DNA of 64,000 nucleotides from Patescibacteria group bacterium UBA3531 (lineage in GTDB: Bacteria; Patescibacteriota; Minisyncoccia; Phycocordibacterales; UBA3531), in the NCBI GenBank assembly GCA_002376885.1, contig DFOW01000001.1:143741-207740 (forward strand), in the 5' to 3' direction. Below the pieces are notes generated by a model. It had not been told where the DNA came from, ran no database searches, and saw only the letters and a program-made list of their open reading frames with translations. Below, piece by piece: positions 8,216 through 60,050 of this stretch (the stretch's first letter is position 1; each line of letters opens with the position of its first letter). The position numbers were made by a program, and so were the translations under genes.

Positions 8216-9472
8216 TTATTTAATTACGTCCTTTCCTAAATATTTTTGAAGCACCTCGGGCACACGAATGCTTCCATCTTCTTGTTGATTGTTCTCAAGG
8301 AGCGAAACAAGGATCCGTGGAGTTGGGATTGCTGTACTATTTAATGAGTGAGCGTATTGTTTTCCACCTTCGTCGTTATAACGAATATTAAAGCGTCGGG
8401 ATTGGAAGTCATGAAAATAAGACGCAGAGCTAATCTCTCGATATTTTTCTTCGCTTGGGACCCATAGTTCAATGTCATATTTTTTAACCTGACCAAGTCC
8501 CAAGTCTCCACCACAATTAGTGACCACCCTATAAGGAAGCCCAAGTGAGGTAATAAATTCTTCGGTGTTTGCATTCAGCCATTCGTGCCATTTAACTGAC
8601 TCTTCGTGACTGGCCTCACATAACACTACTTGTTCGAGTTTAAAAAATTCATGAACCCGAACAAGTCCTTTTGTATCTTTCCCGTAACTCCCTGCCTCAC
8701 GACGATAACACGGAGAGAATGCCAAGTACTTAAGAGGCAATTGTTTTTTGTCTAACGTTTCCCCTGCATGATATGCCATCATAGGAACCTCTGCTGTTCC
8801 TGAAAGATAATCATCGTCTTGTGTCACGTATAAATCTTCTGCTTCATTAGGAAGATGTCCCGTGCCATAAAAATATTCTTTTTTGACAATCGAAGGTGCG
8901 ATAAAAGGAGTAAACTCTTTTTTTAAGAAAAACTCTTGTGCATAGTTCCAGATCGCCCATGACAAAAGTGCGCCATCGTTCTTTAGGTAATATCCTCGAA
9001 ACCCATGAGCTTTACTCCCCCGTTCAAAATCAGCAAGAGAAAGCTGTGTTGCAAGTTCAATATGATTCTTAGGAGTGAATGAGAATTTAGGAATCTCTCC
9101 TACTTTTTTTAATTCTTTATTTTCTTCATCGGTTTTACCTTCAGGAACCGAGACATCAGGAATGTTAGGAACCTGAAGCATAAGGTCACGCCATTTTCCC
9201 ATAACATTTTTTAGTTTTTCTTCATCTTTTTGAAAGTCGTCTTTAAACGCCTTCATTTCTTTTATTTTCTTTTCTCGTTCCTCACCAGAGAGTTTTGCAA
9301 TCTCTTCAGTAACCTTATTTTGTTCAGCGCGTTTTTCTTCTACTTTTTTTAAAAGTTCTACTCTTTCGTCGTCCACCTTCAAGAGTTCTTTAACATCAAA
9401 TGACAGGTGCTTTTTTTGAGCCCCTGCCTGGACAAGATCTTTATTTTCTCGGATAAACTTAATATCCAACAT
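8216..9472 (-). CDS. serS: seryl-tRNA synthetase
   Basis: MLDIKFIREN... N-terminal coiled-coil arm plus class II core (FSPCYRREAGS, GLG...R...YNDEGGK). Confidence 0.9.
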   Translation of the reverse strand: MLDIKFIRENKDLVQAGAQKKHLSFDVKELLKVDDERVELLKKVEEKRAEQNKVTEEIAKLSGEEREKKIKEMKAFKDDFQKDEEKLKNVMGKWRDLMLQVPNIPDVSVPEGKTDEENKELKKVGEIPKFSFTPKNHIELATQLSLADFERGSKAHGFRGYYLKNDGALLSWAIWNYAQEFFLKKEFTPFIAPSIVKKEYFYGTGHLPNEAEDLYVTQDDDYLSGTAEVPMMAYHAGETLDKKQLPLKYLAFSPCYRREAGSYGKDTKGLVRVHEFFKLEQVVLCEASHEESVKWHEWLNANTEEFITSLGLPYRVVTNCGGDLGLGQVKKYDIELWVPSEEKYREISSASYFHDFQSRRFNIRYNDEGGKQYAHSLNSTAIPTPRILVSLLENNQQEDGSIRVPEVLQKYLGKDVIK

Positions 9473-12585: not shown

Positions 12586-12587
12586 TA

Positions 12588-12609
12588 GAGGCCCACTTTC
12601 GTGGGCCTC
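12588..12609. terminator. GC hairpin after topA (gaggcccac-tttc-gtgggcctc)
   Basis: Perfect 9-bp stem immediately after topA stop; no strong T-run. Confidence 0.4.
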
Positions 12610-12636
12610 TGAGTTCGTTGTTCTGGAGTTCTGCCT

Positions 12637-12903
12637 CTAGGCCGACTCCGGAATCCCTCCGACCTCCTTGAGACGCCTGTTGGCGCGCTCGAGGAGCTCG
12701 TCCCGATCGTAGCCGGGCCAGACGATCGTACGCGTCCCGGCCAGAAGCGATCGGATGTAACCACCAACACACCTGATACGCCAGGCACCCTGGTTCGCCC
12801 CCCGATCGGTGTGATCACCGAGCTTGTCGATGAAGGCGAGCTCCTGCTGTTGCGTCCACCCGGTGGTCAAAGGCCCCGAAACGGGAACCGATCGACGTGT
12901 CAT
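12637..12903 (-). CDS. G+C-rich ORFan (cassette A), 88 aa
   Basis: GC3-rich frame; AGGAG 6 nt upstream of ATG; own TTGACA-17-TATTTT promoter; no family recognised. Confidence 0.4.
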   Translation of the reverse strand: MTRRSVPVSGPLTTGWTQQQELAFIDKLGDHTDRGANQGAWRIRCVGGYIRSLLAGTRTIVWPGYDRDELLERANRRLKEVGGIPESA

Positions 12904-12942
12904 GTCCTACTCCTTGTTGAAGGGAAAGAATTACTGCCTATG

Positions 12943-12971
12943 AAAATACAAAATAATTTCTTTTTTGTCAA
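12943..12971 (-). promoter_or_regulatory. promoter aTTGACAaaaaag-17-TATTTT for cassette A
   Basis: -35 TTGACA at 12966-12971 (minus), -10 TATTTT at 12943-12948. Confidence 0.45.
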
Positions 12972-13013
12972 TAATACCCTTCCTTTTTCCTTCCGGCTCC
13001 CTATAATCAAGGT

Positions 13014-15679: not shown

Positions 15680-16090
15680 TTGGTTAAATCAGTAATGGGT
15701 GGCAATGGGTGCCACAAAGCTCATGTACCACTTGTCTTTGGGGAGACAAACGTGAAACAAGGAAGGACGTCCTGTGAAGATCCGTTCGTCAACTTCAACG
15801 ATCACCTCTACAAGCGCCGGGGCATCGGCTCGCTCGAAGAGGGGAAGCTCGAACGGACGGAGGATCGACCCGCCTGGGTGCCGGAGGAAGCGACCGTCGC
15901 TGTACGGACGCGGCGCCTCCACGAACGGAGGGTTCTCGAGGTAACCACGTTCCGCCCGAACGGGAGCGGGTTCATCGAACAGAAGAACATCTTGGGAGGC
16001 GGCCGCGGTAGCATGCCGTCCCCCCAGATCGTGGAGATGCTCCTGAAGGAGGAGTACCCCTCGATCGACGTCCACCTCATCCAGGGCTAG
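15680..16090 (+). CDS. G+C-rich ORFan (cassette B); alternative GTG start at 15752
   Basis: Strong G/C bias at third codon positions in this frame; AGGAAGG just before internal GTG; overlapping minus-strand ORF 15689..16075 treated as GC shadow. Confidence 0.4.
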   Translation: MVKSVMGGNGCHKAHVPLVFGETNVKQGRTSCEDPFVNFNDHLYKRRGIGSLEEGKLERTEDRPAWVPEEATVAVRTRRLHERRVLEVTTFRPNGSGFIEQKNILGGGRGSMPSPQIVEMLLKEEYPSIDVHLIQG

Positions 16091-16111
16091 CGCTTCAGGC
16101 GCACAGCCTTC

Positions 16112-16156
16112 GCGGGGCGTGCGGCACGAAAGTGTCCACGCCCCGCCTTCTTTTTT
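16112..16156 (+). terminator. strong intrinsic terminator (10-bp GC stem + T-run) ending at the miaA ATG
   Basis: GCGGGGCGTG...CACGCCCCGC followed by cttctttttt then ATG of miaA at 16157. Confidence 0.6.
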
Positions 16157-17532: not shown

Positions 17533-17928
17533 TCACCATGCGGCGAGCCTTCCTTCCCCCGTGCCCTCGGGCTTGGGAGGAATGGCGCTTCTCTGCGGCC
17601 TTCGGAAGAACTGAGATTCCCCCATGGCACGCAACATCTTGACGAAGTCGTCCTCGACACAGAAACCGAGCCTCATGATGCACTCGGGACCATCGCAAAG
17701 GACAACGACAGCGTGACTTCCTTGGGCGCCGTCCTTGGGCTGGAAGACCGAGACCCTTCCTTGGAAGCGCCAAGCAACCAAGCAATCGATGAATCCGATC
17801 TTCGTCCCACAACGAGGACAGACGCGCTTGGGGCACCACACCCCAAACCCAGCACCGGCACTGATACTGTCAGCAACCGAAGACCCCCAGGAAGTGACCC
17901 AATAATCTTCGGGAACAATCTGCGTCAC
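17533..17928 (-). CDS. G+C-rich ORFan with 4-Cys zinc-ribbon-like motif (cassette C), GTG start
   Basis: CPKRVCPRCG...CDGPEC; GC3-rich; AAAGGGGGGG upstream of GTG; no family recognised. Confidence 0.4.
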   Translation of the reverse strand: MTQIVPEDYWVTSWGSSVADSISAGAGFGVWCPKRVCPRCGTKIGFIDCLVAWRFQGRVSVFQPKDGAQGSHAVVVLCDGPECIMRLGFCVEDDFVKMLRAMGESQFFRRPQRSAIPPKPEGTGEGRLAAW

Positions 17929-17961
17929 AGCCCCCCCTTTCTGAAAAACACTTTACCTTTT

Positions 17962-17990
17962 TTGACATAAAAAAGAAAGCATAGTATGGT
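17962..17990 (+). promoter_or_regulatory. promoter TTGACAtaaaaaag-17-TATGGT for cassette C plus-strand gene
   Basis: TTGACA 17962-17967, TATGGT 17985-17990. Confidence 0.45.
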
Positions 17991-18303
17991 TTACGTCTGT
18001 TCTTATTGGGGAAGGAGCCCTATAGACATGCACCATGTTGAAGTGCTAGACATCGATGGATTCCAGAACTTCCGCCTACATGAGGGAGACGAGATCATCC
18101 TCCCTGGCGTTCATCTCGAAGCCTCTCCCGCCCCGGGAGACAAGGTGAAGCTCGCCTTCCGTGACGTGGACTGCGTGACGAAGACGAGAGAAGCACTCAT
18201 CACCGGATCCATCGACCCCGGCGAGCCGAGCAACCCGAGGGAGCCCGTGGCTCCCAAGGACATCCGAGTTCGGTGGAACGATCCCATCGTGCGCTGGTCC
18301 TAA
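17986..18303 (+). CDS. G+C-rich ORFan (cassette C), 105 aa (alternative start 18028)
   Basis: GC3-rich frame, followed by strong terminator; no family recognised. Confidence 0.4.
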   Translation: MVYVCSYWGRSPIDMHHVEVLDIDGFQNFRLHEGDEIILPGVHLEASPAPGDKVKLAFRDVDCVTKTREALITGSIDPGEPSNPREPVAPKDIRVRWNDPIVRWS

Positions 18304-18316
18304 CGGACCAGACAAA

Positions 18317-18352
18317 GACCCCCGCGCATGCGCGGGGGTCTCGTCATTTTTA
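18317..18352 (+). terminator. intrinsic terminator GACCCCCGCGCATGCGCGGGGGTC + T-run
   Basis: 12-bp perfect GC stem followed by tcgtcatttttat. Confidence 0.7.
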
Positions 18353-22244: not shown

Positions 22245-23414
22245 CTATTTTTCTAGTGTGGAAAGCACTTTTACTACGTAATCGATATCGGCTTTTTTGG
22301 TCTCTCTCCCGAGACTAAAACGGACGGAACTCATCGCCTCTTTTGGATTCCTTCCAAGAGACGCAATAACGTGAGATGGATCACCACCGCCGTTACTACA
22401 AGCACTTGAGGTGGTTGTATAGACACCATGTCCTTCAAGGAATATCACAATGCGCTCGCCATCGTGGCCATAAAATAAAACATTTACAATCCCTGGAACA
22501 GAATTCTCTGGGTCTCCGTTAATTTCAATATCAAATATTTGTTTTTGTAACGAATCAATAAAATAGTGTTTTAATTTTTCCAGGTGCTCATTGTCTTTTG
22601 TACGCTGTGTATGAGAGATGGTGAGTGCCTCTGCCATTCCAACAATGCCGGGGACGTTTTCTGTCCCTGGCCGCAAAACATTTTCTTGTCCTCCACCCCA
22701 CATAAGAGGCAGGAGTGGAACATCCTCTTTTTTGTACAAAACTCCCACACTTTTAGGACCATATATTTTTGCTCCATCGAGTGTCATTAAATCAATACCA
22801 AGTGCTGCAACGACTGTTGAAAGGTATCGCGGTGCTTGAGAGGCGTCGGTGTGAAAGTACGGATACACTGATGCATTTTTTGTTCTGTGTTCTTTAATGA
22901 TATTTCCAATTTCTCTAACTGGTTGGGTGGTTCCTATCTCATTATTTACCATCATTACTGACACAAGTACCGTATTTTTGGTAAGTGCTTTTTTAAGGGC
23001 ATCAATATTCACTACCCCAGCTTCGGTAACAGGAATACTTGTAACCAAACACCCTTCTCGTTCAAGTTCTTTAGGAAGCTCCCGAACCGACGAATGCTCG
23101 AATTCCGTTGTAATAACATGAGGGTTTTTAACCTTTCCCTCTTTTTTAATGGCACGAACCACTCCCAAAAGAGCCATATTGTTTGCCTCGGTTCCGCCAC
23201 TTGTAAAAATGATTCCTTTTGACCTGATACCAAGCACGCCCGCAATTTCTTTCCTGGCCTCCTCAACAGACTCTTTTGCCTCTTTACCCATTGCGTGTAT
23301 TGAGTGCGGATTTCCAAAAGTATCACTAAAAAAAGGCCGCATTCTCTTCATAACGCGGGGGTCTACAGGGGTTGCTGCAGCGTAATCTAGGTAGACGTTC
23401 CTTCTTTTTTTCAT
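22245..23414 (-). CDS. cysteine desulfurase (NifS/IscS family, class V aminotransferase)
   Basis: YLDYAAATP...IIFTSGGTEANN...SACSNG motifs. Confidence 0.85.
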   Translation of the reverse strand: MKKRRNVYLDYAAATPVDPRVMKRMRPFFSDTFGNPHSIHAMGKEAKESVEEARKEIAGVLGIRSKGIIFTSGGTEANNMALLGVVRAIKKEGKVKNPHVITTEFEHSSVRELPKELEREGCLVTSIPVTEAGVVNIDALKKALTKNTVLVSVMMVNNEIGTTQPVREIGNIIKEHRTKNASVYPYFHTDASQAPRYLSTVVAALGIDLMTLDGAKIYGPKSVGVLYKKEDVPLLPLMWGGGQENVLRPGTENVPGIVGMAEALTISHTQRTKDNEHLEKLKHYFIDSLQKQIFDIEINGDPENSVPGIVNVLFYGHDGERIVIFLEGHGVYTTTSSACSNGGGDPSHVIASLGRNPKEAMSSVRFSLGRETKKADIDYVVKVLSTLEK

Positions 23415-28296: not shown

Positions 28297-29475
28297 ATGT
28301 CAATCATAACCCTGACGTTGATCGTCTTCGTCACGCTCCTTGTTCTGAGTGTGCCGTTGTTCGTCCTCGTTGCGTGGCTCCTGGCCTACCTGGATATCTT
28401 TTTTGGATTCCTCCAGGAGAATACGGGCTTCGCCAAGATCGTTGGAGACAACCAACTTCAAAGCATGCAAATCGCTTCGAAGAGTCAGCACCTCAAAAGG
28501 AAGGTGGTCCAACACCCTGAGGCGGGCGCAATCGAGACGTGGGTTCTGGAACAAGGAGCAGATCCCAACCCTGCCTTCGGCCTTATTGGTTGGATGGAGC
28601 GCAAGCTTGGTGTCTACTGGATTGGTGTTTGGCCGTTCCAAAGGCGCTACCGGTACGAGATGTTCCGAACCGTCTTCGATCGGAGTGCTGACGCAGACGA
28701 GAACACGATCCTCCGGAAGAATGACCAGAGCAAGTTCTTCTACGTTCAGCCGGTGGAGTACGCCTTCTCTCTCCTCGGAGCAGAGACAGGCAGTGCCTTC
28801 GCTGGCGACACAGAAGATACGGACACTTCGTCTCGGGGTGGCAACATCCCGGTGAACGTGAAGTTCTCCGTGTTCCTCTTGATCACAAGACCCGAGATTG
28901 CCCTCTTCAAGAACCCTGTATGGTTCGAGCGAGCAAGCTCGATCCTTCTGTCCGCAGCGAAGAACTACGTCGGCACTCGTGCGTATGAGGCGCTCCGTGG
29001 CGAAAGCCGATCGGACACCGCAGACGTCGAGACCGATGATGCCTTCGCGGGCTACATGCGGGATCTGAACGAAGCGATTCCGGGAACCGGTCACGGCTTC
29101 GAATCCGAGATCGGTGCCAAGATCGTCGGAGCGGCCATCAGAGCCGTCGACATCACGGCGGAGGGCGAAGAGGCCCGAAGCGCAACGCTGCTCCTCTACG
29201 GAGAAGAGCAGCGCGCCAAGGGAATCCGAGCCGTCGCTGATGCGCGTCGCTACGAGCTCGAACAGGAGCTCGATGCAGTCGATGGATCCCCCAACGGGGG
29301 GCACGTCCGTCGGATGCGCGCGATCGAGCGTGCAGGTGAGCGTGGTAACACAATCATCTTCACGAGCGGCGGCGACGAAAAGGAGGATCGTGTCGCAGCG
29401 AACCTTCTGGCTGGCCGCAAGGGTGAAGACCCCTCAAGCGAAGGCACCGATGACTCCACCGAGAAGGAGGAGTAG
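28297..29475 (+). CDS. G+C-rich SPFH/band-7-like membrane protein (cassette D)
   Basis: N-terminal TM, beta-rich core with ...ASSILLSAAKNYVGTRAYEAL..., EIGAKIVGAAIRAVDI, then A/E/R-rich coiled-coil AEGEEARSA...RAKGIRAVADARRYE as in HflK/C-flotillin. Confidence 0.5.
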   Translation: MSIITLTLIVFVTLLVLSVPLFVLVAWLLAYLDIFFGFLQENTGFAKIVGDNQLQSMQIASKSQHLKRKVVQHPEAGAIETWVLEQGADPNPAFGLIGWMERKLGVYWIGVWPFQRRYRYEMFRTVFDRSADADENTILRKNDQSKFFYVQPVEYAFSLLGAETGSAFAGDTEDTDTSSRGGNIPVNVKFSVFLLITRPEIALFKNPVWFERASSILLSAAKNYVGTRAYEALRGESRSDTADVETDDAFAGYMRDLNEAIPGTGHGFESEIGAKIVGAAIRAVDITAEGEEARSATLLLYGEEQRAKGIRAVADARRYELEQELDAVDGSPNGGHVRRMRAIERAGERGNTIIFTSGGDEKEDRVAANLLAGRKGEDPSSEGTDDSTEKEE

Positions 29476-30252
29476 ATGAAGATGCCTGACTCGATAAGGG
29501 GGCTTGGGTGGAAGCGGTTCTCCGCAACTGCCCTTACCTCGTTCATCCTCGTCATTGTCTCGTTCATGATCGTGAACGCAGGCGAGGGCGAGGCAGAGAA
29601 GGTCTTCAAGACTCTCTCTGTGATTGCGACCGGGATTGGAGCACTCCTCGTTCTCCTGCTTCTTCTCGTGATCGTGTCGTCTCTTGCTCGTAGGCGTCGG
29701 TCTCTCAAAAAAGAGACTCCCGTCGTCGACAAGCCGACCAAACCAGGAAGATGGCAGAAGTTCAGGGCCACTCCCTTCTTCTGGACACTCTTCAAGGTCT
29801 CCGCCTTCGTAGTGGCAGTAGTCATTGCAATAAGCGGATTCCCTCTGTTGCGTGACGCCATGAACATCCCCGACGTGGGGCCCAGGAATGGAGATCTCAA
29901 GTTCTCCAAGTGGACGCTCTCCAGTACACCACTGTCGTACAACCTGAATCGAACGACACGTGGTACGGTCAAGATCTGGAAGAAAGAGCGTCGCTTTGAG
30001 CTTCCGTTCTTCTTGAACATGAAGCTCATGGGCGAGGATGGAGTTCTCGTGGGGCAAATCACCTCGAGTGACTTTGCCATGGGCGAGACCTTCCCCGTCA
30101 CCTGGGAGATGACCTGGCGAGACCATATGACCGGAGACGGAGCCCTCGAGTGTCACTACAACAAACACCACAGCGTGATTGCTTGTAACGGCACCATCTG
30201 CGGCGAAGATTCCGAAGGTCGGAGGTGTCGTCGAGTGAACTTTAGCGGCTAG
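29476..30252 (+). CDS. G+C-rich membrane protein (3 TM + Cys-containing soluble C-domain), start abuts upstream stop; possible NfeD-like partner
   Basis: TAG-ATG junction at 29473-29478; three hydrophobic helices; no family recognised. Confidence 0.4.
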   Translation: MKMPDSIRGLGWKRFSATALTSFILVIVSFMIVNAGEGEAEKVFKTLSVIATGIGALLVLLLLLVIVSSLARRRRSLKKETPVVDKPTKPGRWQKFRATPFFWTLFKVSAFVVAVVIAISGFPLLRDAMNIPDVGPRNGDLKFSKWTLSSTPLSYNLNRTTRGTVKIWKKERRFELPFFLNMKLMGEDGVLVGQITSSDFAMGETFPVTWEMTWRDHMTGDGALECHYNKHHSVIACNGTICGEDSEGRRCRRVNFSG

Positions 30253-37682: not shown

Positions 37683-37801
37683 TTCGCGTCTTTATTAACC
37701 CTTCTGAACCCCCCTAGTATAGCAGAAATCCGCCTAAAAACAAAGCTTTTTCTGGTTTTTAGCCTAAAAATAATTTCAAGCTATTGAATCATTAAACGTA
37801 C

Positions 37802-37830
37802 TTGACAAATATATATAAATATGATATTAT
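37802..37830 (+). promoter_or_regulatory. promoter cTTGACAaat-17-TATTAT for cassette E
   Basis: TTGACA 37802-37807, TATTAT 37825-37830. Confidence 0.5.
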
Positions 37831-37889
37831 AAGAATAGAAACATAGGGAAAGGCATTGTGCCCCTACTGCTCACCACAAGGAGAATACC

Positions 37890-38249
37890 GTGTATACCGC
37901 AGCATCTCTTTTTCTGATCATCTTCTGCGTGGCATGCTCCCCTGTGGAGGAGGCAAGCCCCAGAGAGAAAGTGAATGAAATCCGGCAGGGTTTCGTGAAT
38001 GACATCGGAGATGAGGGCCTAGAGAAGGCTCTTGAGAACCTCTCGCAGGAATGCGAGAAGCTCGAAGGCTACGGCTTCAGTGTCAAGACCCTCAACAGGA
38101 CTCGAGGCGTCTACAAGATCAAGATCACTGGGCCCAACGTGGCAACCCAGGTGATCTTTCAGACCTCTGAGTCAGTCGACGAGCAATCCTCTGCAGAGCG
38201 CCTGGACGCTCCTACACTCAAGGGGTTTGAGGCTCCCATTCTCCAGTAG
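37890..38249 (+). CDS. G+C-rich putative lipoprotein ORFan (cassette E)
   Basis: Signal LFLIIFCVACSP with lipobox-like Cys; GC3-rich; GAGAATACC-GTG/ATG context; terminator follows. Confidence 0.4.
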   Translation: MYTAASLFLIIFCVACSPVEEASPREKVNEIRQGFVNDIGDEGLEKALENLSQECEKLEGYGFSVKTLNRTRGVYKIKITGPNVATQVIFQTSESVDEQSSAERLDAPTLKGFEAPILQ

Positions 38250-38288
38250 TACCAAGGCTTCGCCTGACAGCCTAAAAGGACTCGGGCA

Positions 38289-38322
38289 ACACACCATCTT
38301 GGAAGCAAGGTGGTGTTTTTGT
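38289..38322 (+). terminator. intrinsic terminator ACACCATCTTGG-aagc-AAGGTGGTGT + TTTTTG
   Basis: 11-bp stem (1 mismatch) plus T-run. Confidence 0.6.
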
Positions 38323-38505
38323 ATTTGTACAATTAATTGTACAAATAATTCTGTATTGTTACGCAGCATGTTACGTAACACCTTACGTAAATAAAAACTT
38401 CCCAAGAAACCACATTTGGAAATGGTACCCTCCTGTCGGGCACGTTTGGAACTTTGGATTGGAGTAGAATAAGGTGAGATTTGATGGAGTTCGGATTTGT
38501 ATAGC

Positions 38506-48037: not shown

Positions 48038-48373
48038 CTAGCTAGACCAGGTCTCCATCCCGACCAGCACAGAAATGATGGTCAGGACAATGAAGATGGG
48101 AATTCCGACTGCTCGCCCAAACCTTGCGTAAAGGTAGAGCGTGATGGAGTTGCGAATGACACCCTCGGGGTCGTGCTTGCGAAAGCAGAAGTTGGCGAAC
48201 ACCGACAGGGGGCACCACAGAAAGATGACTTGACCAATTACGGTCAACAGGATTGCCAACCTTGTGATGTGATTCGGCAACCACAGCTCTCCGAAGATGA
48301 GAACTGCAACAATGAAGACTGCGTGGAATGCCTCAGTTGCGATACCGAGGCAGAGCCATCCTTTTTTGGACAT
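48038..48373 (-). CDS. G+C-rich small membrane protein (cassette F)
   Basis: Track ORF 48038..48541 trimmed because its 5' end runs through tRNA-Ser; start at MSKKGW; 3 TM. Confidence 0.4.
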   Translation of the reverse strand: MSKKGWLCLGIATEAFHAVFIVAVLIFGELWLPNHITRLAILLTVIGQVIFLWCPLSVFANFCFRKHDPEGVIRNSITLYLYARFGRAVGIPIFIVLTIISVLVGMETWSS

Positions 48374-54124: not shown

Positions 54125-54640
54125 CTAAACAATAGTACTAATAAACTGCCCAATTGAGAAGGCTATTGCCGCTGCCACTCCCCCAATCACCACCATCTTG
54201 ATTCCACCCACAAAAAAGGGCTTGTCGGTAACCATATTACGAAGTGATCCCACAACAAAAAGAGCAAGGAGAGTTGCAATGATTGTATACACAAACACCT
54301 CTCCACTTCCTCCTAAAACAATATAGGGAATAAGCGGGACAGATCCCGCAACAATAAACGAACTAAACGTTGCAAATGCACTCGATGCAGGGCTTGTATT
54401 AACAAAAAAAGGATCTTCTGTATCCCCTGCATCTTGCAGCAAATGATCTTTTGACTCAGTCGCCAAATAGTTTGATGACGCCATAGAAAATGCATCAGCA
54501 AAAAGTGATGCCAACCCAATAATGATAACCGTTTGGGGGGCCAGGCTTGCTCCAACCACACCAGCAACAATCGCAAAGGTAGTAATAATGCCGTCATTGG
54601 CACCATACACCATATCAGGAACAAAGTATTTTAATTTCAT
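54125..54640 (-). CDS. VIT1/CCC1-family iron/manganese transporter
   Basis: YGANDGIITTFAIVAGV motif plus multiple TM. Confidence 0.65.
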   Translation of the reverse strand: MKLKYFVPDMVYGANDGIITTFAIVAGVVGASLAPQTVIIIGLASLFADAFSMASSNYLATESKDHLLQDAGDTEDPFFVNTSPASSAFATFSSFIVAGSVPLIPYIVLGGSGEVFVYTIIATLLALFVVGSLRNMVTDKPFFVGGIKMVVIGGVAAAIAFSIGQFISTIV

Positions 54641-55486: not shown

Positions 55487-57274
55487 TTAGCCACGCATTA
55501 CCTTCAAAAATACATCTTGTGGAATAGAAACTTTTCCTCCTTCTTTCATCTTTTTCTTTCCCTTTTTTTGCTTTTCTCTGAGTTTCATCTTCCGAGTAAT
55601 GTCCCCACCGTAAAGCTTTGCTGTAACATCTTTACGGAGCGCCTTTAGGGTTTTTGAGGCAATAATGCGCCCTTTTGCTTGTGCTTGAATTTTAATAACA
55701 AATTGCTGGCGCGGAAGAACATCATGGAGTTTTTCTACCACATCTCGCGCTTCTTCTTCTGCTCGACGTTCAGCAATAATCCGAGAAAATGCAGGAACTA
55801 TTTCCTCTGCAATCAAAACATCAAGTCGTGTTACCTGCGCTTCTCGCATATCACCCATCTCATATGAAAGAGAGGCATACCCACTGGTTGCGCTTTTTAT
55901 TTCATCAAAAAAGTTTCGCATAAGCTCGCGCAAAGGCATTTCAAGATCAAGTGCCATGCGATTGTCTCCGAATGAATTAGTGTTACCAACAATGGCTTCG
56001 TGTTCATAAAGGAGCGTCATAACATTTCCCAAATAATCACCAGGGACAATAAGAGTAACCTTAATCCATGGTTCTAAAACTTTTTCGTAACTTCCATGAT
56101 CAGGAAACTTTACGGGAGAATAAATAATTTCTTCCTTCCCACCCTTAGAAAATACTTTATAGGTAATAGTAGGGCTTGTAATAATAAGATTCAAATTAAA
56201 CTCTCGTTTTAATCGTTCGGTAATAATTTCAAGATGAAGCATTCCCAAAAAACCACAGCGGAATCCTCGCCCAAGCGACACTGACGCCTCCTCTTCAAAC
56301 GAAAGAGATGAATCGGTTAAAAGAAGTTTGCCAAGCGCTTGACGCAATACATCAAAATCATCTTGGCTTTCAGGGTAGAGCGATGCCCACACTACTGGCT
56401 TTGGTTTTTCAAATCCTGTCACGGGAGCGCTTTGTGATTTAAAAAGTGTTACGGTGTCACCCACTTGTGTTACTCCCGGGCGTTTAATACCTGTTACAAT
56501 GTATCCAATTTCACCCTCTTTCAAAGAATCTTTTTTTGTTCGAAGAGGAGAAAACACTCCAACCTCTTGAGCAATAAACCGTTCTTTTGCCCCAACAAAC
56601 AATAGTTCGTCTCCTTTTTTAACCTCTCCTCCATAGACACGAGTGTAGACAATAACTCCTTGATGGTTTGAATATTCAAAATCAAAAATAAGTGACTGAA
56701 GAGAGTTTGCCTTAGTTTTTTTAGGAGAAGGAACCTTATCGACAATACGATCAAGAAGCGCCTCTACTCCTTCTCCTGTTTTTGCAGAAACACATAAAAT
56801 TTCATCGGGAGAACAACCCACCACATTTACTACTTGCTGTTTTACCTCTTCTGTTTGAGCTCCAGCAAGATCAATCTTATTGAGGACTGGAATAATGGGA
56901 AGATTAAGCTCTTTTGCCATATCAAGAACCGTAAGCGTCTGTGCCTGAACCCCTTGTGTGGCATCAACAAGTAAAATGGTTCCTTCGATAGATTTAAGGG
57001 CTCGAGATACTTCGTATGAAAAGTCTATGTGCCCGGGTGTATCGATAAGATTCAAAACATAGTCTGTTCCTTCTTTTTGATACCCCATTCGAACAGGCTG
57101 CATTTTAATGGTAATCCCACGTTCTCGTTCGAGCTCCATTTGATCGAGAAGCTGATCCTTCATTTCACGTTCTGAGATTGTTTTAGTCACCTCTAACATG
57201 CGGTCGGCAAGAGTCGACTTTCCATGATCAATATGCGCAATGATTGAAAAATTTCGTATGGTATTGGTATCCAT
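55487..57274 (-). CDS. lepA: elongation factor 4
   Basis: IRNFSIIAHIDHGKSTLADR G-domain, LepA C-terminal domain. Confidence 0.9.
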   Translation of the reverse strand: MDTNTIRNFSIIAHIDHGKSTLADRMLEVTKTISEREMKDQLLDQMELERERGITIKMQPVRMGYQKEGTDYVLNLIDTPGHIDFSYEVSRALKSIEGTILLVDATQGVQAQTLTVLDMAKELNLPIIPVLNKIDLAGAQTEEVKQQVVNVVGCSPDEILCVSAKTGEGVEALLDRIVDKVPSPKKTKANSLQSLIFDFEYSNHQGVIVYTRVYGGEVKKGDELLFVGAKERFIAQEVGVFSPLRTKKDSLKEGEIGYIVTGIKRPGVTQVGDTVTLFKSQSAPVTGFEKPKPVVWASLYPESQDDFDVLRQALGKLLLTDSSLSFEEEASVSLGRGFRCGFLGMLHLEIITERLKREFNLNLIITSPTITYKVFSKGGKEEIIYSPVKFPDHGSYEKVLEPWIKVTLIVPGDYLGNVMTLLYEHEAIVGNTNSFGDNRMALDLEMPLRELMRNFFDEIKSATSGYASLSYEMGDMREAQVTRLDVLIAEEIVPAFSRIIAERRAEEEARDVVEKLHDVLPRQQFVIKIQAQAKGRIIASKTLKALRKDVTAKLYGGDITRKMKLREKQKKGKKKMKEGGKVSIPQDVFLKVMRG

Positions 57275-57300
57275 AGCACTACTATACTAAAGTATTTCTC

Positions 57301-57347
57301 TTAAAAAGAAAGCCGCCTCGAGTCCACAATGGGTACCCGGGCGGCGG
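57301..57347 (-). terminator. GC hairpin + U-run ending the cassette G transcript just upstream of lepA start
   Basis: Minus RNA ...CUCCGCCGCCCGGGUACCCAUUGUGGACUCGAGGCGGCUUUCUUUUU. Confidence 0.45.
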
Positions 57348-57453
57348 AGTGGACGGCACCTGGGTGCGTCCATGGTTTTCTAGTGCGCAAGGCGCACCTT
57401 GGTGGAAGGTCCCAGCTCAAGGGGTGAGCCTCGAGTCTGGGCGGAAGGCGGAT

Positions 57454-57648
57454 CTAGCCGAAGAGGGGCGCACCGAGCGAGACGACCCCGCCGGGCAGGA
57501 TCACGTGACCCCGACCATCCGAACCGAGCGGCGGACCGCTGAGCTCGGAGAACGGGATCTCGCTCTCGCGACGGAGCCGGCGAACCGAGCCACGCGTCCG
57601 GGTGCTCTCCTTGGTGCGTACCGTGCCTTCGCCTTCCTGTTTCTTCAT
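57454..57648 (-). CDS. very G+C-rich small basic ORF (cassette G), 64 aa; coding status uncertain
   Basis: AGGAAGGGAAGGAAT-cccg-ATG context; track ORF begins at TTG inside the -35 box so trimmed to internal ATG. Confidence 0.3.
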   Translation of the reverse strand: MKKQEGEGTVRTKESTRTRGSVRRLRRESEIPFSELSGPPLGSDGRGHVILPGGVVSLGAPLFG

Positions 57649-57715
57649 CGGGATTCCTTCCCTTCCTGAAGTTCTCTTTCGAGCGCGGCCCCCAGCCACG
57701 CTACGTCCACTATCC

Positions 57716-57744
57716 AAACTACTATAATAAAAGTCTTTTGTCAA
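57716..57744 (-). promoter_or_regulatory. promoter cTTGACAaaag-17-TAGTTT for cassette G
   Basis: -35 TTGACA at 57739-57744 (minus); near-identical to cassette D promoter over 20 nt. Confidence 0.4.
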
Positions 57745-57750
57745 GCCCCC

Positions 57751-59430
57751 CTAAAGTTCTTCCTGGTCTGGCAATACAGGCCTTGTTTTACTCACCCGAG
57801 CAACAAGCGCCCGCCTAATATCCTTAATTTCTTGATTACCCAGCGTCTCAAGAAACAAAATACCAACAACAATACCGGCAATGCCAGACAAGAACCCCTG
57901 CAAAAAGATTCCCCAAAAGGTATTGATATCAAATACATCATCAAACACTTGAAGAAGATAATACGCCACAATTCCCATCAAAAGCGCTGCAGCAAGCGAT
58001 TGGAATACACTTTTTCGTATAGAAACATAATATTCTCTAAATTCTTTTTTAAATAAAAGCCAAATAAGAGAAAGATTAAGAAGCGCCCCAACCGAGAACG
58101 CGAGAGGCAACATAAGGACACTGGTACCAGGAATACCCTCAACACGGAAAAGGTTTTCAAAAAAGTCTCTGAATCCTGGGACGCTTGAGAAAATAGAAAG
58201 AAATACAAACCCCAAGACAACACTCACAAGACCCGAAACAAGGTTTACATAAAGCGGCTTTTTTGTATTTCCTGCTGCGTAGTAACCACGCACAAACAAA
58301 TTAATAAGCCCTTGCGCAACCACAGAGAATGAAAAGAGAGCAAGCGCTGCTGCGGTGAGTCTGGTGTCGGTCCACGTAAATTCCCCTGCCCCTAAAATGG
58401 TTCTAACGATTTGCGCACGAAGCACAACAAACAAAGACAGCACGGGCAACGACCAGAAAATAATGTGTTTCCCTGCCGCAACAATGTACTGAACAAAGTG
58501 CGACTTATCGCCATTTGAAAAGAGTCGCGAAAGCGTTGGGAATGCCGCAACCGAATAACTCATACCAATAATGGCAAGAGGGACCGACTGAAGATTATAC
58601 GAGAGATTAAAGATTGCAATTGACCCCTCCTCAATACGCGAAGCAAGCGCCACAAAGACAATAATAAGAATGTGATTCACACTCAAAGTAAGGGTTCGTG
58701 GCAAAGAAAGTGTTACTACTTTTTTAATAGAAGAAAAATCTGGAACAAATGTTATGCGAGGGAAGATTCCTGAACGTACAACTGTTGGGATTTGAATAAT
58801 AAAATGAAAGAGTGCACCAAGAATAACTCCGTACACCAGCCCCTTGATTCCAAATGGTTCGTATAAAAAAAGAAGCCCAAAAATGATTGCAAGGTTGTAA
58901 ACAATCGGGGTAAGAGCGTAGACAAAAAAGCGTCTCATGGTTTGAACCACGCTTCCAAATAAGTTAGAGAGCCCAAGTAAAAATGGGGAGAGCAACAACA
59001 ACCGAGACAACTCTATAAACGTTTCTTTATTTTCATCACTAAACCCTGGGACCACAATATCTGCAAGGGTTGGCATTAATACATACGCAACCAAAGAAAC
59101 AATAATCATTAAAAGAAGGAAGAAGGTAAGGATACTTGAAAGGAAGTTGTTGAGTTCTTGCCTTCTTTCTTCCCCCAACTTTTCAGTAATAAAAGGAATA
59201 AGGACCGTTGCTGCAACAAGCGAAGCAACCAAGACATAGATGATGTCGGGTACCCTAAATGAGGCGTAATAGACATCGAGTGTTGTCCCTGCCCCAAAAG
59301 TGCTCGCAAAAAGACGGTCACGAACAAGGGCAAGAATTTGAGACCCAAAAGCAGAGATTCCCAAGAGAAACGCGGCCTCGTGAAGGCCGCCAAAATCCTT
59401 ATTAAAAAGCCGTACAATACCGTTTACCAT
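57751..59430 (-). CDS. murJ: lipid II flippase MurJ (MviN)
   Basis: 14-TM MOP family, N-terminal ...LGISAFGSQILALVRDRL.A..FGAG...D. Confidence 0.85.
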   Translation of the reverse strand: MVNGIVRLFNKDFGGLHEAAFLLGISAFGSQILALVRDRLFASTFGAGTTLDVYYASFRVPDIIYVLVASLVAATVLIPFITEKLGEERRQELNNFLSSILTFFLLLMIIVSLVAYVLMPTLADIVVPGFSDENKETFIELSRLLLLSPFLLGLSNLFGSVVQTMRRFFVYALTPIVYNLAIIFGLLFLYEPFGIKGLVYGVILGALFHFIIQIPTVVRSGIFPRITFVPDFSSIKKVVTLSLPRTLTLSVNHILIIVFVALASRIEEGSIAIFNLSYNLQSVPLAIIGMSYSVAAFPTLSRLFSNGDKSHFVQYIVAAGKHIIFWSLPVLSLFVVLRAQIVRTILGAGEFTWTDTRLTAAALALFSFSVVAQGLINLFVRGYYAAGNTKKPLYVNLVSGLVSVVLGFVFLSIFSSVPGFRDFFENLFRVEGIPGTSVLMLPLAFSVGALLNLSLIWLLFKKEFREYYVSIRKSVFQSLAAALLMGIVAYYLLQVFDDVFDINTFWGIFLQGFLSGIAGIVVGILFLETLGNQEIKDIRRALVARVSKTRPVLPDQEEL

Positions 59431-59680: not shown

Positions 59681-59716
59681 AAATCCCGGGATTAACCGGG
59701 ATTTTTGATATAGATT
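59681..59716. terminator. bidirectional terminator AAAAATCCCGG-gattaa-CCGGGATTTTT shared by HTH gene and rnpB
   Basis: Perfect palindrome with A/T runs both sides. Confidence 0.7.
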
Positions 59717-60050
59717 GCCTTGTGCTTATAAGCCGGATTCTGTACTACGCAAAGCGTAGCGATAGCCATTTATCTGTCGTGTTTGTTACCAAACAGATCA
59801 AGCGGCACTCTCACACATGGTGAGCACGACCTTGCACCCAGGTAAGGATTTAGCCGTTTCACCTCTTATATTTCTATAAGAGCTTACCCCGAGGGGTATT
59901 GAGCCTATTTCTAAACTCAACGTCTCTGCTCGCACCTCTCGTATTGCTACGGACGGGCGTTACCCGCTACCCTGCTCCTTGTTTACACAAGGGAGTGTCC
60001 GGACTTTCCTCTCCTAAAAATAGGAGCGACTACCCAACACAAGGCGAGAT
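59712..60050 (-). ncRNA. rnpB: RNase P RNA (bacterial type A-like)
   Basis: Minus strand: P4 strands GAGAGGAAAGTCCGGACACTCCC and GTACAGAATCCGGCTTA; GGGTAACGCC P8/P9-like motif; P1 pairing between ATCTCGCCTTGTGTT (5') and AGCACAAGGCAATCT (3'). Confidence 0.8.

Follow-up and report, generated by a model that had tools for sequence, protein, structure and literature searches.

A G+C-rich unit upstream of lepA in a marine Patescibacteria genome probably encodes a lineage-restricted small basic protein

In the 64,000-nucleotide (nt) stretch of contig DFOW01000001.1 of Patescibacteria group bacterium UBA3531, to which we refer as the window, a G+C-rich block on the minus strand (the unit) lies between murJ and lepA. 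We propose, with a probability of about 0.72, that this unit is a self-contained gene for a fast-evolving basic protein of 64 residues, flanked by conserved RNA hairpins, a reading drawn from the sequences of the unit and its relatives. The unit is restricted to one subclade of marine Paceibacteria/Campbellbacteria-like bacteria, in six lineages, and as a new lineage-restricted small-protein family it is an ordinary kind of feature. What it adds is a small protein family that is confined to one clade of as yet unculturable organisms and has conserved hairpins in its mRNA, and a correction of the public annotation, which in our judgement places a hypothetical protein on the wrong strand; a collection of 15 billion proteins does not contain the likely true product.

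In the proposed arrangement, a sigma-70-type promoter right after the murJ stop codon would drive a transcript of about 405 nt, the 5' end of which would fold into a conserved stem-loop with a G-rich UGGGG loop. A strong Shine-Dalgarno (SD) tract would then lead into a 64-codon open reading frame (ORF) for a basic, arginine-rich and probably disordered protein, and the stop codon would be followed by a 3' untranslated region (UTR) of 150 nt with four hairpins, the first of them conserved and the last an efficient-looking intrinsic terminator. lepA would have a transcript of its own, leaderless and started from a -10 box located 6 nt before its ATG. By analogy with known mRNA stabilisers, the terminal hairpins may guard the mRNA from 5'- and 3'-end-dependent decay, or they may bind a protein, and for the arginine-rich product we infer binding to nucleic acid or to the ribosome.

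Anatomy and coding signal of the unit

The genes murJ (57,751-59,430) and lepA (55,487-57,274) are both encoded on the minus strand, and the spacer of 476 bp between the murJ stop at 57,751 and the lepA ATG at 57,274 is filled by the G+C-rich block. An earlier reading of the DNA from its letters and ORFs (the sequence-only reading) had singled this block out as the most G+C-rich segment of the window, and this is correct: the highest G+C content over 150 nt in the window is 0.727, located within 57,281-57,731, against a window mean of 0.42. G+C content and G+C at third codon positions (GC3) are 0.68 and 0.80 here, compared with 0.40 and 0.30, respectively, for lepA.

A -35 box, TTGACA (57,739-57,744, minus), can be read from the sequence 6 nt past the murJ stop codon, and a -10 box, TAGTTT (57,716-57,721, minus), follows it 17 nt further on. 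Compared with the sigma-70 consensus, the -35 box matches at 6/6 positions and the spacer has 17 nt; the -10 box matches at just 3/6 positions, which puts it below the threshold of the consensus scanner and is why the scanner missed this promoter. The transcript start is predicted at about 57,708-57,710. A leader of ~60 nt separates the -10 box from the SD-like purine tract GGAAGGGAAGGAA (57,655-57,667, minus), which lies 6 nt ahead of the ATG, with AGGAAGGGAAGGAA positioned 6 nt upstream of this start codon. At the opposite end, the unit is closed by an intrinsic terminator (57,303-57,345, minus) composed of a 13-bp hairpin (57,312-57,345), with six G-C pairs at the base of its stem and a bulge, and of the U tract UUUCUUUUU that follows (57,303-57,311). 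We attribute the failure of a simple scanner to report this terminator to the bulge in the stem. The distance from the terminator end to the lepA ATG is 28 nt, one more than the 27 bp given earlier; the original description of a minus-strand unit of ~440 nt with its own promoter and terminator stands for the terminator and, with regard to the promoter, for its layout, the -10 box being poor.

The 64-codon ORF, MKKQEGEGTVRTKESTRTRGSVRRLRRESEIPFSELSGPPLGSDGRGHVILPGGVVSLGAPLFG, occupies 57,454-57,648 of the minus strand with the stop included (ATG at 57,648, TAG at 57,454), and its G+C content at the three codon positions (GC1/2/3) is 0.69-0.70/0.55-0.56/0.80. When G+C content by codon position is followed in a sliding window, three-base periodicity begins at the ATG and ends at the TAG. 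We also scored the ORF with a codon model trained on the other G+C-rich ORFs of the window, which themselves obtain leave-one-out scores of 0.12-0.22 per codon. The 64-codon ORF obtains 0.191 per codon, the highest of the six frames (z 4.8 versus nucleotide shuffles), while its in-frame flanks are negative (-0.23 per codon on the 5' side and -0.25 on the 3' side), and in each of the six lineages the ORF frame is the top-scoring of the six. A model of native codon usage scores the ORF negatively. The ORF thus displays what is expected of a bacterial SD-led gene, namely a start codon with an SD motif, an open frame and a frame-bound codon bias.

Past the TAG, the frame stays open for 50 further codons (57,301-57,453, minus) and ends just beyond the terminator. 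Stop-codon read-through into this segment was considered and is unlikely, because the downstream frame shows no periodicity and has a negative codon score.

The predicted product has 64 residues, an isoelectric point of 10.8, a net charge of +4 and a grand average of hydropathy of -0.59. The sequence-only reading had called it very basic; it is indeed basic and SD-led, but "very" is generous for a net charge of +4. An AlphaFold model from the single sequence has a mean predicted local distance difference test (pLDDT) score of 64.5 and a predicted template modelling (pTM) score of 0.20, and consists mostly of coil with one short beta hairpin; the product is basic and arginine-rich, and probably disordered. 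This character is the basis on which we suggest, with low confidence, a small nucleic-acid- or ribosome-associated protein. Profile searches of Pfam, NCBIfam, PHROGs, PADLOC and the PDB assign the product to no family, returning only noise from single members at E >= 0.01, and there is no match among viral contigs. A type I toxin-antitoxin system is not indicated either, as the product is hydrophilic, no hydrophobic span is visible by eye and the scanner reports no promoter-like site on the plus strand.

Conservation of the unit in related lineages

The window comes from a marine metagenome-assembled genome (MAG), and the members of its cluster are labelled Tara station 78 mesopelagic. LepA and the surrounding 7.8 kb are 100% identical to contig PAMJ01000009.1 of the NCBI MAG GCA_002708165.1 and to a JGI metagenome contig from sample 3300020447, two deposited records that may share read sets. 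Among named relatives, Candidatus Campbellbacteria and Paceibacterota MAGs are the nearest. Five related lineages carry the unit, and are named here by their locus labels: L018 (LepA 81% identical to that of the window), L019 (79%), L006/L007 (79%), L020-L022 (66%) and L008/L016 (64%). In all six lineages, including that of the window, a unit of 400-580 bp fills the murJ-lepA slot. In distant relatives, with identities of about 50% for MurJ and about 61-67% for LepA, murJ and lepA are 8-130 bp apart or have another gene between them. Since the same layout is found in the same slot in five other lineages, the unit is not a random insertion. The arrangement also means that in this clade lepA is uncoupled from murJ and has apparently acquired a leaderless promoter of its own.

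The putative promoter is retained in the relatives. A -35 box, TTGACA or TTGCTT, occupies the same position in L018, L019, L006, L020 and L008, and the respective -10 boxes are TAACAT, TAACAT, TATTGT, TATATT and TAGAGT, with spacers of 17-18 nt and the layout TAnnnT in all five. By eye, the other units also finish in a G+C-rich hairpin followed by a T run, short in L008 and clear in the other four relatives (L018, L019, L006 and L020). Between these ends, each of the six units has an ATG-initiated, SD-led ORF of 54-69 codons, with a purine-rich SD-like motif directly ahead of the ATG in every lineage. The probability that such a sense-strand ORF arises by chance is 0.06-0.21 per unit; multiplied over the six units, taken as independent, it is 2e-6.

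The closest correspondence is with L018, in which the same -35/17 nt/-10 arrangement, the 5' hairpin, the SD motif, the first 3' hairpin and a similar terminator are followed by a CTTTAGTATAG-type box. Its ORF has exactly 64 codons and is 33% identical to that of the window (BLASTP E 4e-4), and the in-frame comparison scores highest among the 36 possible frame pairs. The z score for protein similarity is 5.7 for the window and L018 and 10 for L019 and L006; weaker similarity (z 3-4) is obtained for the window with L019, the window with L006, L006 with L020, and L008 with L020. In all these pairs, the target unit scores best in its ORF frame, and most of the six ORFs have in common a central arginine-rich motif, (I/V)RR-x-RRE..PE. 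A frameshift or overprinting as the source of the ORF divergence was rejected, since no off-frame similarity was found. We also considered that the small ORFs, being hard to align, might be unrelated insertions at a hotspot, and dropped this idea once L018 proved to have the same promoter, hairpins, 64-codon ORF and terminator. The sequence-only reading had left the choice between a protein and a structured RNA. The coding signal with its sharp bounds, the retention of the ORF in six lineages and the similarity in the ORF frame favour the protein, and the RNA part of the proposal survives in the UTR hairpins only.

In all six lineages, the GC3 of the ORF (0.53-0.80) is above that of lepA (0.24-0.43). 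Because these lineages are old, with LepA identities of 64-81%, and yet all their units are G+C-rich, the high G+C content is maintained rather than the result of a recent transfer.

The relationships among the ORFs conflict with those among the LepA proteins, since by the ORF L019 groups with L006 and L018 with the window. This suggests that the ORF segment was exchanged between lineages across conserved flanks, or that ancient alleles persist, and the conflict among sister lineages would fit recombination. Across the promoter and 5' hairpin, the DNA of L018 is 78% identical to that of L019 (units at L018:2,660-3,222, L019:98-677 and L006:1,694-2,236).

Hairpins outside the ORF are conserved as well. 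The 5'-proximal hairpin (57,680-57,705, minus), present in the minimum-free-energy fold, has the core AGCGUGGC-UGGGG-GCCGCGCU (57,682-57,702) with its G-rich loop. Eight pairs are formed in each of the window, L018 and L019, and the resulting 24 cells are without exception standard pairs; 4/8 pairs change on both sides and two on one side, while slid controls pair at 29-50%. The UGGGG loop is kept; the hairpin of L006 has seven positions, one of them a U-U mismatch, and the loop AUGGGG, and a 5'-proximal hairpin in L020 and L008 likewise has a G-rich loop. The 3' UTR, of ~150 nt, contains four separate hairpins, the last being the terminator. Hairpin 1 (57,411-57,441, minus) has a lower stem CCCAG/CUGGG, a bulged A and an upper stem, and in a hand alignment the layout sCCAG-A-CY...GG-CUGGs, with a five-pair lower stem, recurs in the window, L018, L019 and L006, with exchanges of C-G to U-A and of C-G to G-C among relatives. 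Hairpins 2 (57,382-57,398, minus; GGUGCGC-CUU-GCGCACU) and 3 (57,350-57,372, minus) come from the fold of the window only. The covariation counts of these hairpins are suggestive, not decisive.

We considered whether the UGGGG loop might form a kissing interaction with the C-rich loop of hairpin 1 and set this aside, since by eye the latter loop is not conserved in the relatives. Separately, the start of the 3' UTR, CGCCUUCC (57,443-57,450), is an 8-nt perfect complement of GGAAGGCG in codons 4-6 (57,630-57,637); it closes a long-range helix in the full-length fold, and is not clearly conserved in L018.

Several observations weigh against a protein-coding gene as described here. The -10 box of the unit is weak, and a 64-codon ORF is unexceptional in sequence of 65% G+C (P = 0.21, shuffles of the unit). 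The AlphaFold model has low confidence, and no homologue of the product was found outside the six syntenic units, either in a word-indexed search of 5.8 billion proteins or in a full HMMER search of 1.84 billion representatives. The available relatives are either identical or saturated (<= 33% amino-acid identity), with no intermediate sequence found; the ORFs are too diverged for a ratio of non-synonymous to synonymous substitution rates (dN/dS), and all available copies are identical, leaving no variants for a comparison of synonymous with non-synonymous changes. L018 and L019 are sisters by LepA (86% identity), yet their ORFs are unalignable (z -0.3). Finally, the untranslated hairpins are better conserved than the ORF, as a function at the RNA level would also predict, and their covariation comes from three or four sequences only.

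Bacterial microprotein genes are often missed or miscalled by gene finders, and the unit resembles lineage-restricted genes of this kind in its 64-codon ORF, its SD motif, its terminator and its putative promoter, its narrow clade, its fast evolution, the predicted disorder of its product and its annotation on the wrong strand. It differs from them in a G+C content far above that of the host in six lineages, in being SD-led within a leaderless genome, and in untranslated hairpins that are more conserved than the coding sequence. The hairpins themselves invite comparison with 5' stem-loops and SD-like elements that stabilise mRNAs, such as the leader hairpin of Escherichia coli ompA, the leaders of Bacillus ermC and aprE, and the STAB-SD of cry3A. 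Like these, the hairpin of the unit lies close to the predicted 5' end (~10-25 nt), has a G-rich, SD-like loop and shows compensatory changes, and the unit has a terminator hairpin at its 3' end; in contrast with them, the transcript start is a predicted one and a stabilising role is one that we infer only.

Alternative readings and the promoter of lepA

Among the alternatives, the one that survives best, although we consider it unlikely, is a structured non-coding RNA of ~400 nt, in which the hairpins would be functional, the middle a variable spacer and the ORF a by-product of the high G+C content. The G+C-rich island in a genome of lower G+C content would agree with this, as would the hairpins with compensatory changes, conserved more than the ORF, and the occurrence of a 64-codon ORF by chance in 21% of unit shuffles. 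The fold of the whole block is also more stable than that of shuffled sequences, more so on the minus strand (z -3.2) than on the plus strand (z -2.0). However, when the block is divided, the z score is -4.85 for the 3' UTR (0/200 shuffles as good), -1.5 for the whole leader and -1.4 for the ORF. The fold signal therefore lies in the 3' UTR, and the ORF segment folds no better than its shuffles. Periodicity and codon-model score are restricted to the ORF, an SD-led ORF of similar length is present in all six lineages, including units of 47-48% G+C for which the chance is 0.06-0.07, and similarity across lineages peaks in the ORF frame.

Known RNA families give no support to a non-coding RNA. 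Rfam 15, which includes tmRNA, RNase P, 6S, signal recognition particle (SRP), OLE, GOLLD, HEARO, ROOL, riboswitches and others, has no match at gathering score in the block; over 57,200-57,850 only noise is obtained at E <= 10 (CRISPR-DR44 at 17 bits and RsmY at 10 bits), and the units of the five related loci have no Rfam match. As noted earlier from the sequence, tmRNA and RNase P signatures are absent from the block: a scan of the window with ARAGORN detects no tmRNA, and RNase P RNA is encoded at a different place (59,713-60,045).

Klein, Misulovin and Eddy reportedly screened G+C-rich islands as structural RNA genes in A+T-rich genomes in 2002, and the sharp intergenic G+C peak in a genome of lower G+C content follows the same logic, which lay behind the earlier RNA idea. 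The present host differs, having 42% G+C and a marine mesopelagic origin rather than being a thermophile; the peak of the unit overlaps an ORF with codon periodicity, and the other G+C peaks of the window also resemble protein genes. Dual-function RNAs, such as Staphylococcus RNAIII, which encodes hld, and Bacillus SR1, which encodes SR1P, are a further likeness, with transcripts of ~400-500 nt in which the 5' half contains a small ORF and the long 3' portion has several hairpins, with C-rich loops among them; in the unit, in contrast, the C-rich loops are not conserved in the relatives, and there is no homology.

Somewhat less likely still is a foreign or mobile cassette from a donor of high G+C content, inserted in the murJ-lepA spacer. 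Besides the contrast in G+C content and GC3 between the unit and lepA, this would account for an SD-led, leadered gene among leaderless native genes, for its negative score under the native codon model, for the adjacency of murJ and lepA in distant relatives, for the conflict between ORF and LepA relationships and for a direct repeat that brackets the unit. The first copy of this 14-nt repeat, TTTAGTATAGTAGT (57,278-57,291, minus), lies in the -10 region of lepA, and the second, TTTATTATAGTAGT (57,718-57,731), overlaps the promoter of the unit and is identical to the first at 13/14 positions; a degenerate 14-mer for the pair matches exactly at just these two sites of the window. The repeat could be the trace of an original insertion, of a promoter duplication, or of conversion between the two promoters. 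On the other hand, the same layout and slot in six lineages with LepA identities of 64-81% would make any acquisition ancient, and the G+C content has nevertheless stayed high throughout. Terminal inverted repeats are absent, the unit occurs only once in the window, gene calls for the 7.8 kb surrounding lepA include neither a transposase nor an integrase, and there is no phage, plasmid (blastn) or viral match. Apart from the direct repeat, the unit has the marks of neither a mobile element, such as a MITE or an IS fragment, nor an integron cassette, of which attC was not specifically modelled. The other G+C-rich cassettes of the window also lack flanking repeats, and a target-site duplication as a general feature of such cassettes was rejected, as the repeat was found at the studied unit only. 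By eye, the promoter regions of lepA and of the unit are less alike in L018 and L019 than in the window.

A regulatory module for lepA is less probable again. Here the transcript, or the arginine-rich peptide, would modulate the terminator by attenuation or by antitermination of the lambda N/boxB type, and lepA would need read-through. In line with this, the sequence-only reading had argued that the terminator leaves no room for a separate lepA promoter, which would imply read-through or attenuation control. The argument fails because the -10 box of lepA, TATAGT (57,281-57,286, minus), lies 6 nt ahead of its ATG, in the leaderless position that is usual in this genome: a -10 box is located 4-12 nt ahead of the start codon in 23 of 48 native genes, where 8.6 +/- 2.7 would be expected at random, and an SD-like motif precedes 6 of 48 (random 5.8), so that about half of the window genes have this layout. 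Examples are found at 8,216-9,472 (minus), 13,014 (plus), 22,245-23,414 (minus), 23,481 (plus), 50,117 (plus) and 54,125-54,640 (minus). The layout is the one described for those bacteria in which leaderless transcription is frequent, the Pribnow box being located ~10 nt from the start ('group C' of GeneMarkS-2; PMC6028130). By eye, L019, L020 and L008 likewise have a -10-like hexamer that precedes the lepA ATG by 6-7 nt, which makes 4/6 lineages together with the window.

From these sequences, lepA appears to have its own leaderless promoter, and some read-through of the terminator into lepA is possible. In favour of a regulatory role are the terminator directly before lepA, the constant position of the unit upstream of lepA, the small, basic, arginine-rich and probably disordered product, the conserved hairpins of its own transcript as possible binding sites, and the poor -35 region of the lepA promoter. 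Against it, on a read-through transcript lepA would have a leader that lacks an SD motif, and in L018 and L006 there are 105-150 extra nt between the terminator and lepA. Between the ORF stop and the terminator stem there are 108 nt, and ribosome-coupled attenuation is therefore unlikely. Masking the 5' arm of hairpin 1 left the terminator intact in the fold and revealed no antiterminator alternative, and no antiterminator pairing was found that would support the attenuation proposed earlier. Leader-peptide attenuators of the trp/his type are also a poor match, given an ORF of 64 codons and three independent hairpins before the terminator.

Lambda N/boxB is a functional analogy only to the unit, having in common a small, basic, disordered, arginine-rich protein, conserved hairpins in the same transcript and a terminator before the next gene. 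The two differ in that they have no sequence similarity and lepA appears to have its own promoter; a nut-like boxA was neither sought nor seen.

Very improbable, finally, is that the true gene is the 106-codon ORF on the plus strand (57,349-57,669), which is called as hypothetical protein CL654_01510 in the NCBI and JGI records and is the longest in the block: it lies in the codon-aligned antisense frame, which is second best in each training gene (here 0.136 versus 0.191 per codon), its GC1 exceeds its GC3, opposite to the other cassette genes, it begins inside the minus-strand terminator and by eye lacks a promoter, a properly spaced SD motif and a terminator, and it matches just itself among 5.8 billion proteins, even at E <= 10, though relatives have the unit. 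In L018 the gene caller chose another antisense ORF, of 60 aa. We judge the 106-codon ORF to be spurious, an antisense shadow of the 64-codon ORF.

Other G+C-rich islands and neighbouring features

The 64-codon gene proposed above has company in the window, where at least five further G+C-rich islands (0.52-0.64 versus the window mean) lie between housekeeping genes. They are found at 12,586-12,990 (ORF 12,637-12,903, minus), 15,680-16,156 (plus), 17,533-17,928 (minus), 17,960-18,350 (ORF 18,028-18,303, plus), 37,800-38,325 (ORF 37,890-38,249, plus) and 48,038-48,373 (minus). By eye, four or five of them have a TTGACA-type promoter, a leader, a strong SD motif and a small ORF, the island at 17,533-17,928 being less clear, and four have a clear terminator together with a normal coding pattern of GC1/2/3. 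One product is lipoprotein-like and one membrane-protein-like, again by eye. None of the island products has a Pfam or PHROGs match, each 90%-identity cluster that was examined contains this genome only, and there is no DNA similarity among the islands of the window or between them and the unit.

This wider pattern, in which a leaderless genome of low G+C content harbours several small genes that are G+C-rich and SD-led, is more interesting than the gene itself, and bears on the origin, expression and compositional distinctness of small genes in reduced symbiont genomes. As a speculation to which we give little weight, the unit and at least five other G+C-rich, leadered, SD-led cassettes might constitute a distinct expression class in a reduced, low-G+C and largely leaderless Paceibacteria genome, with the high G+C content of synonymous sites and UTRs kept by selection on RNA or by GC-biased conversion driven by recombination, and with the arginine-rich peptide binding the hairpins of its own mRNA, either for autoregulation or to set the level of read-through into lepA.

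A longer segment of raised G+C content (0.55-0.58) at 28,297-30,252 (plus) holds two adjacent ORFs of 392 and 258 aa; the former has no Pfam match, and the latter has a weak match to MFS_1, below the curated cut-off.

The murJ-lepA slot varies among relatives. In L018, an extra 105 nt (L018:3,118-3,222) lie between the conserved CTTTAGTATAG box and the lepA ATG, and in L006 ~150 nt past the terminator (L006:2,090-2,236) include the 13-nt inverted repeat CCCGTTAGAAGTT. The gap reaches 928 bp in L015 (L015:4,675-5,602), apparently with a reverse-strand ORF by eye, and in L023 (L023:697-2,457) the slot is occupied by an ATP-binding cassette (ABC) transporter of 586 aa.

On the other side of murJ, the RNase P RNA mentioned above (class A, minus strand, 122 bits), which is unrelated to the block, lies between a ribonucleotide reductase gene and a small MerR-type helix-turn-helix gene upstream of murJ, an order that is also found in L018 and L020.

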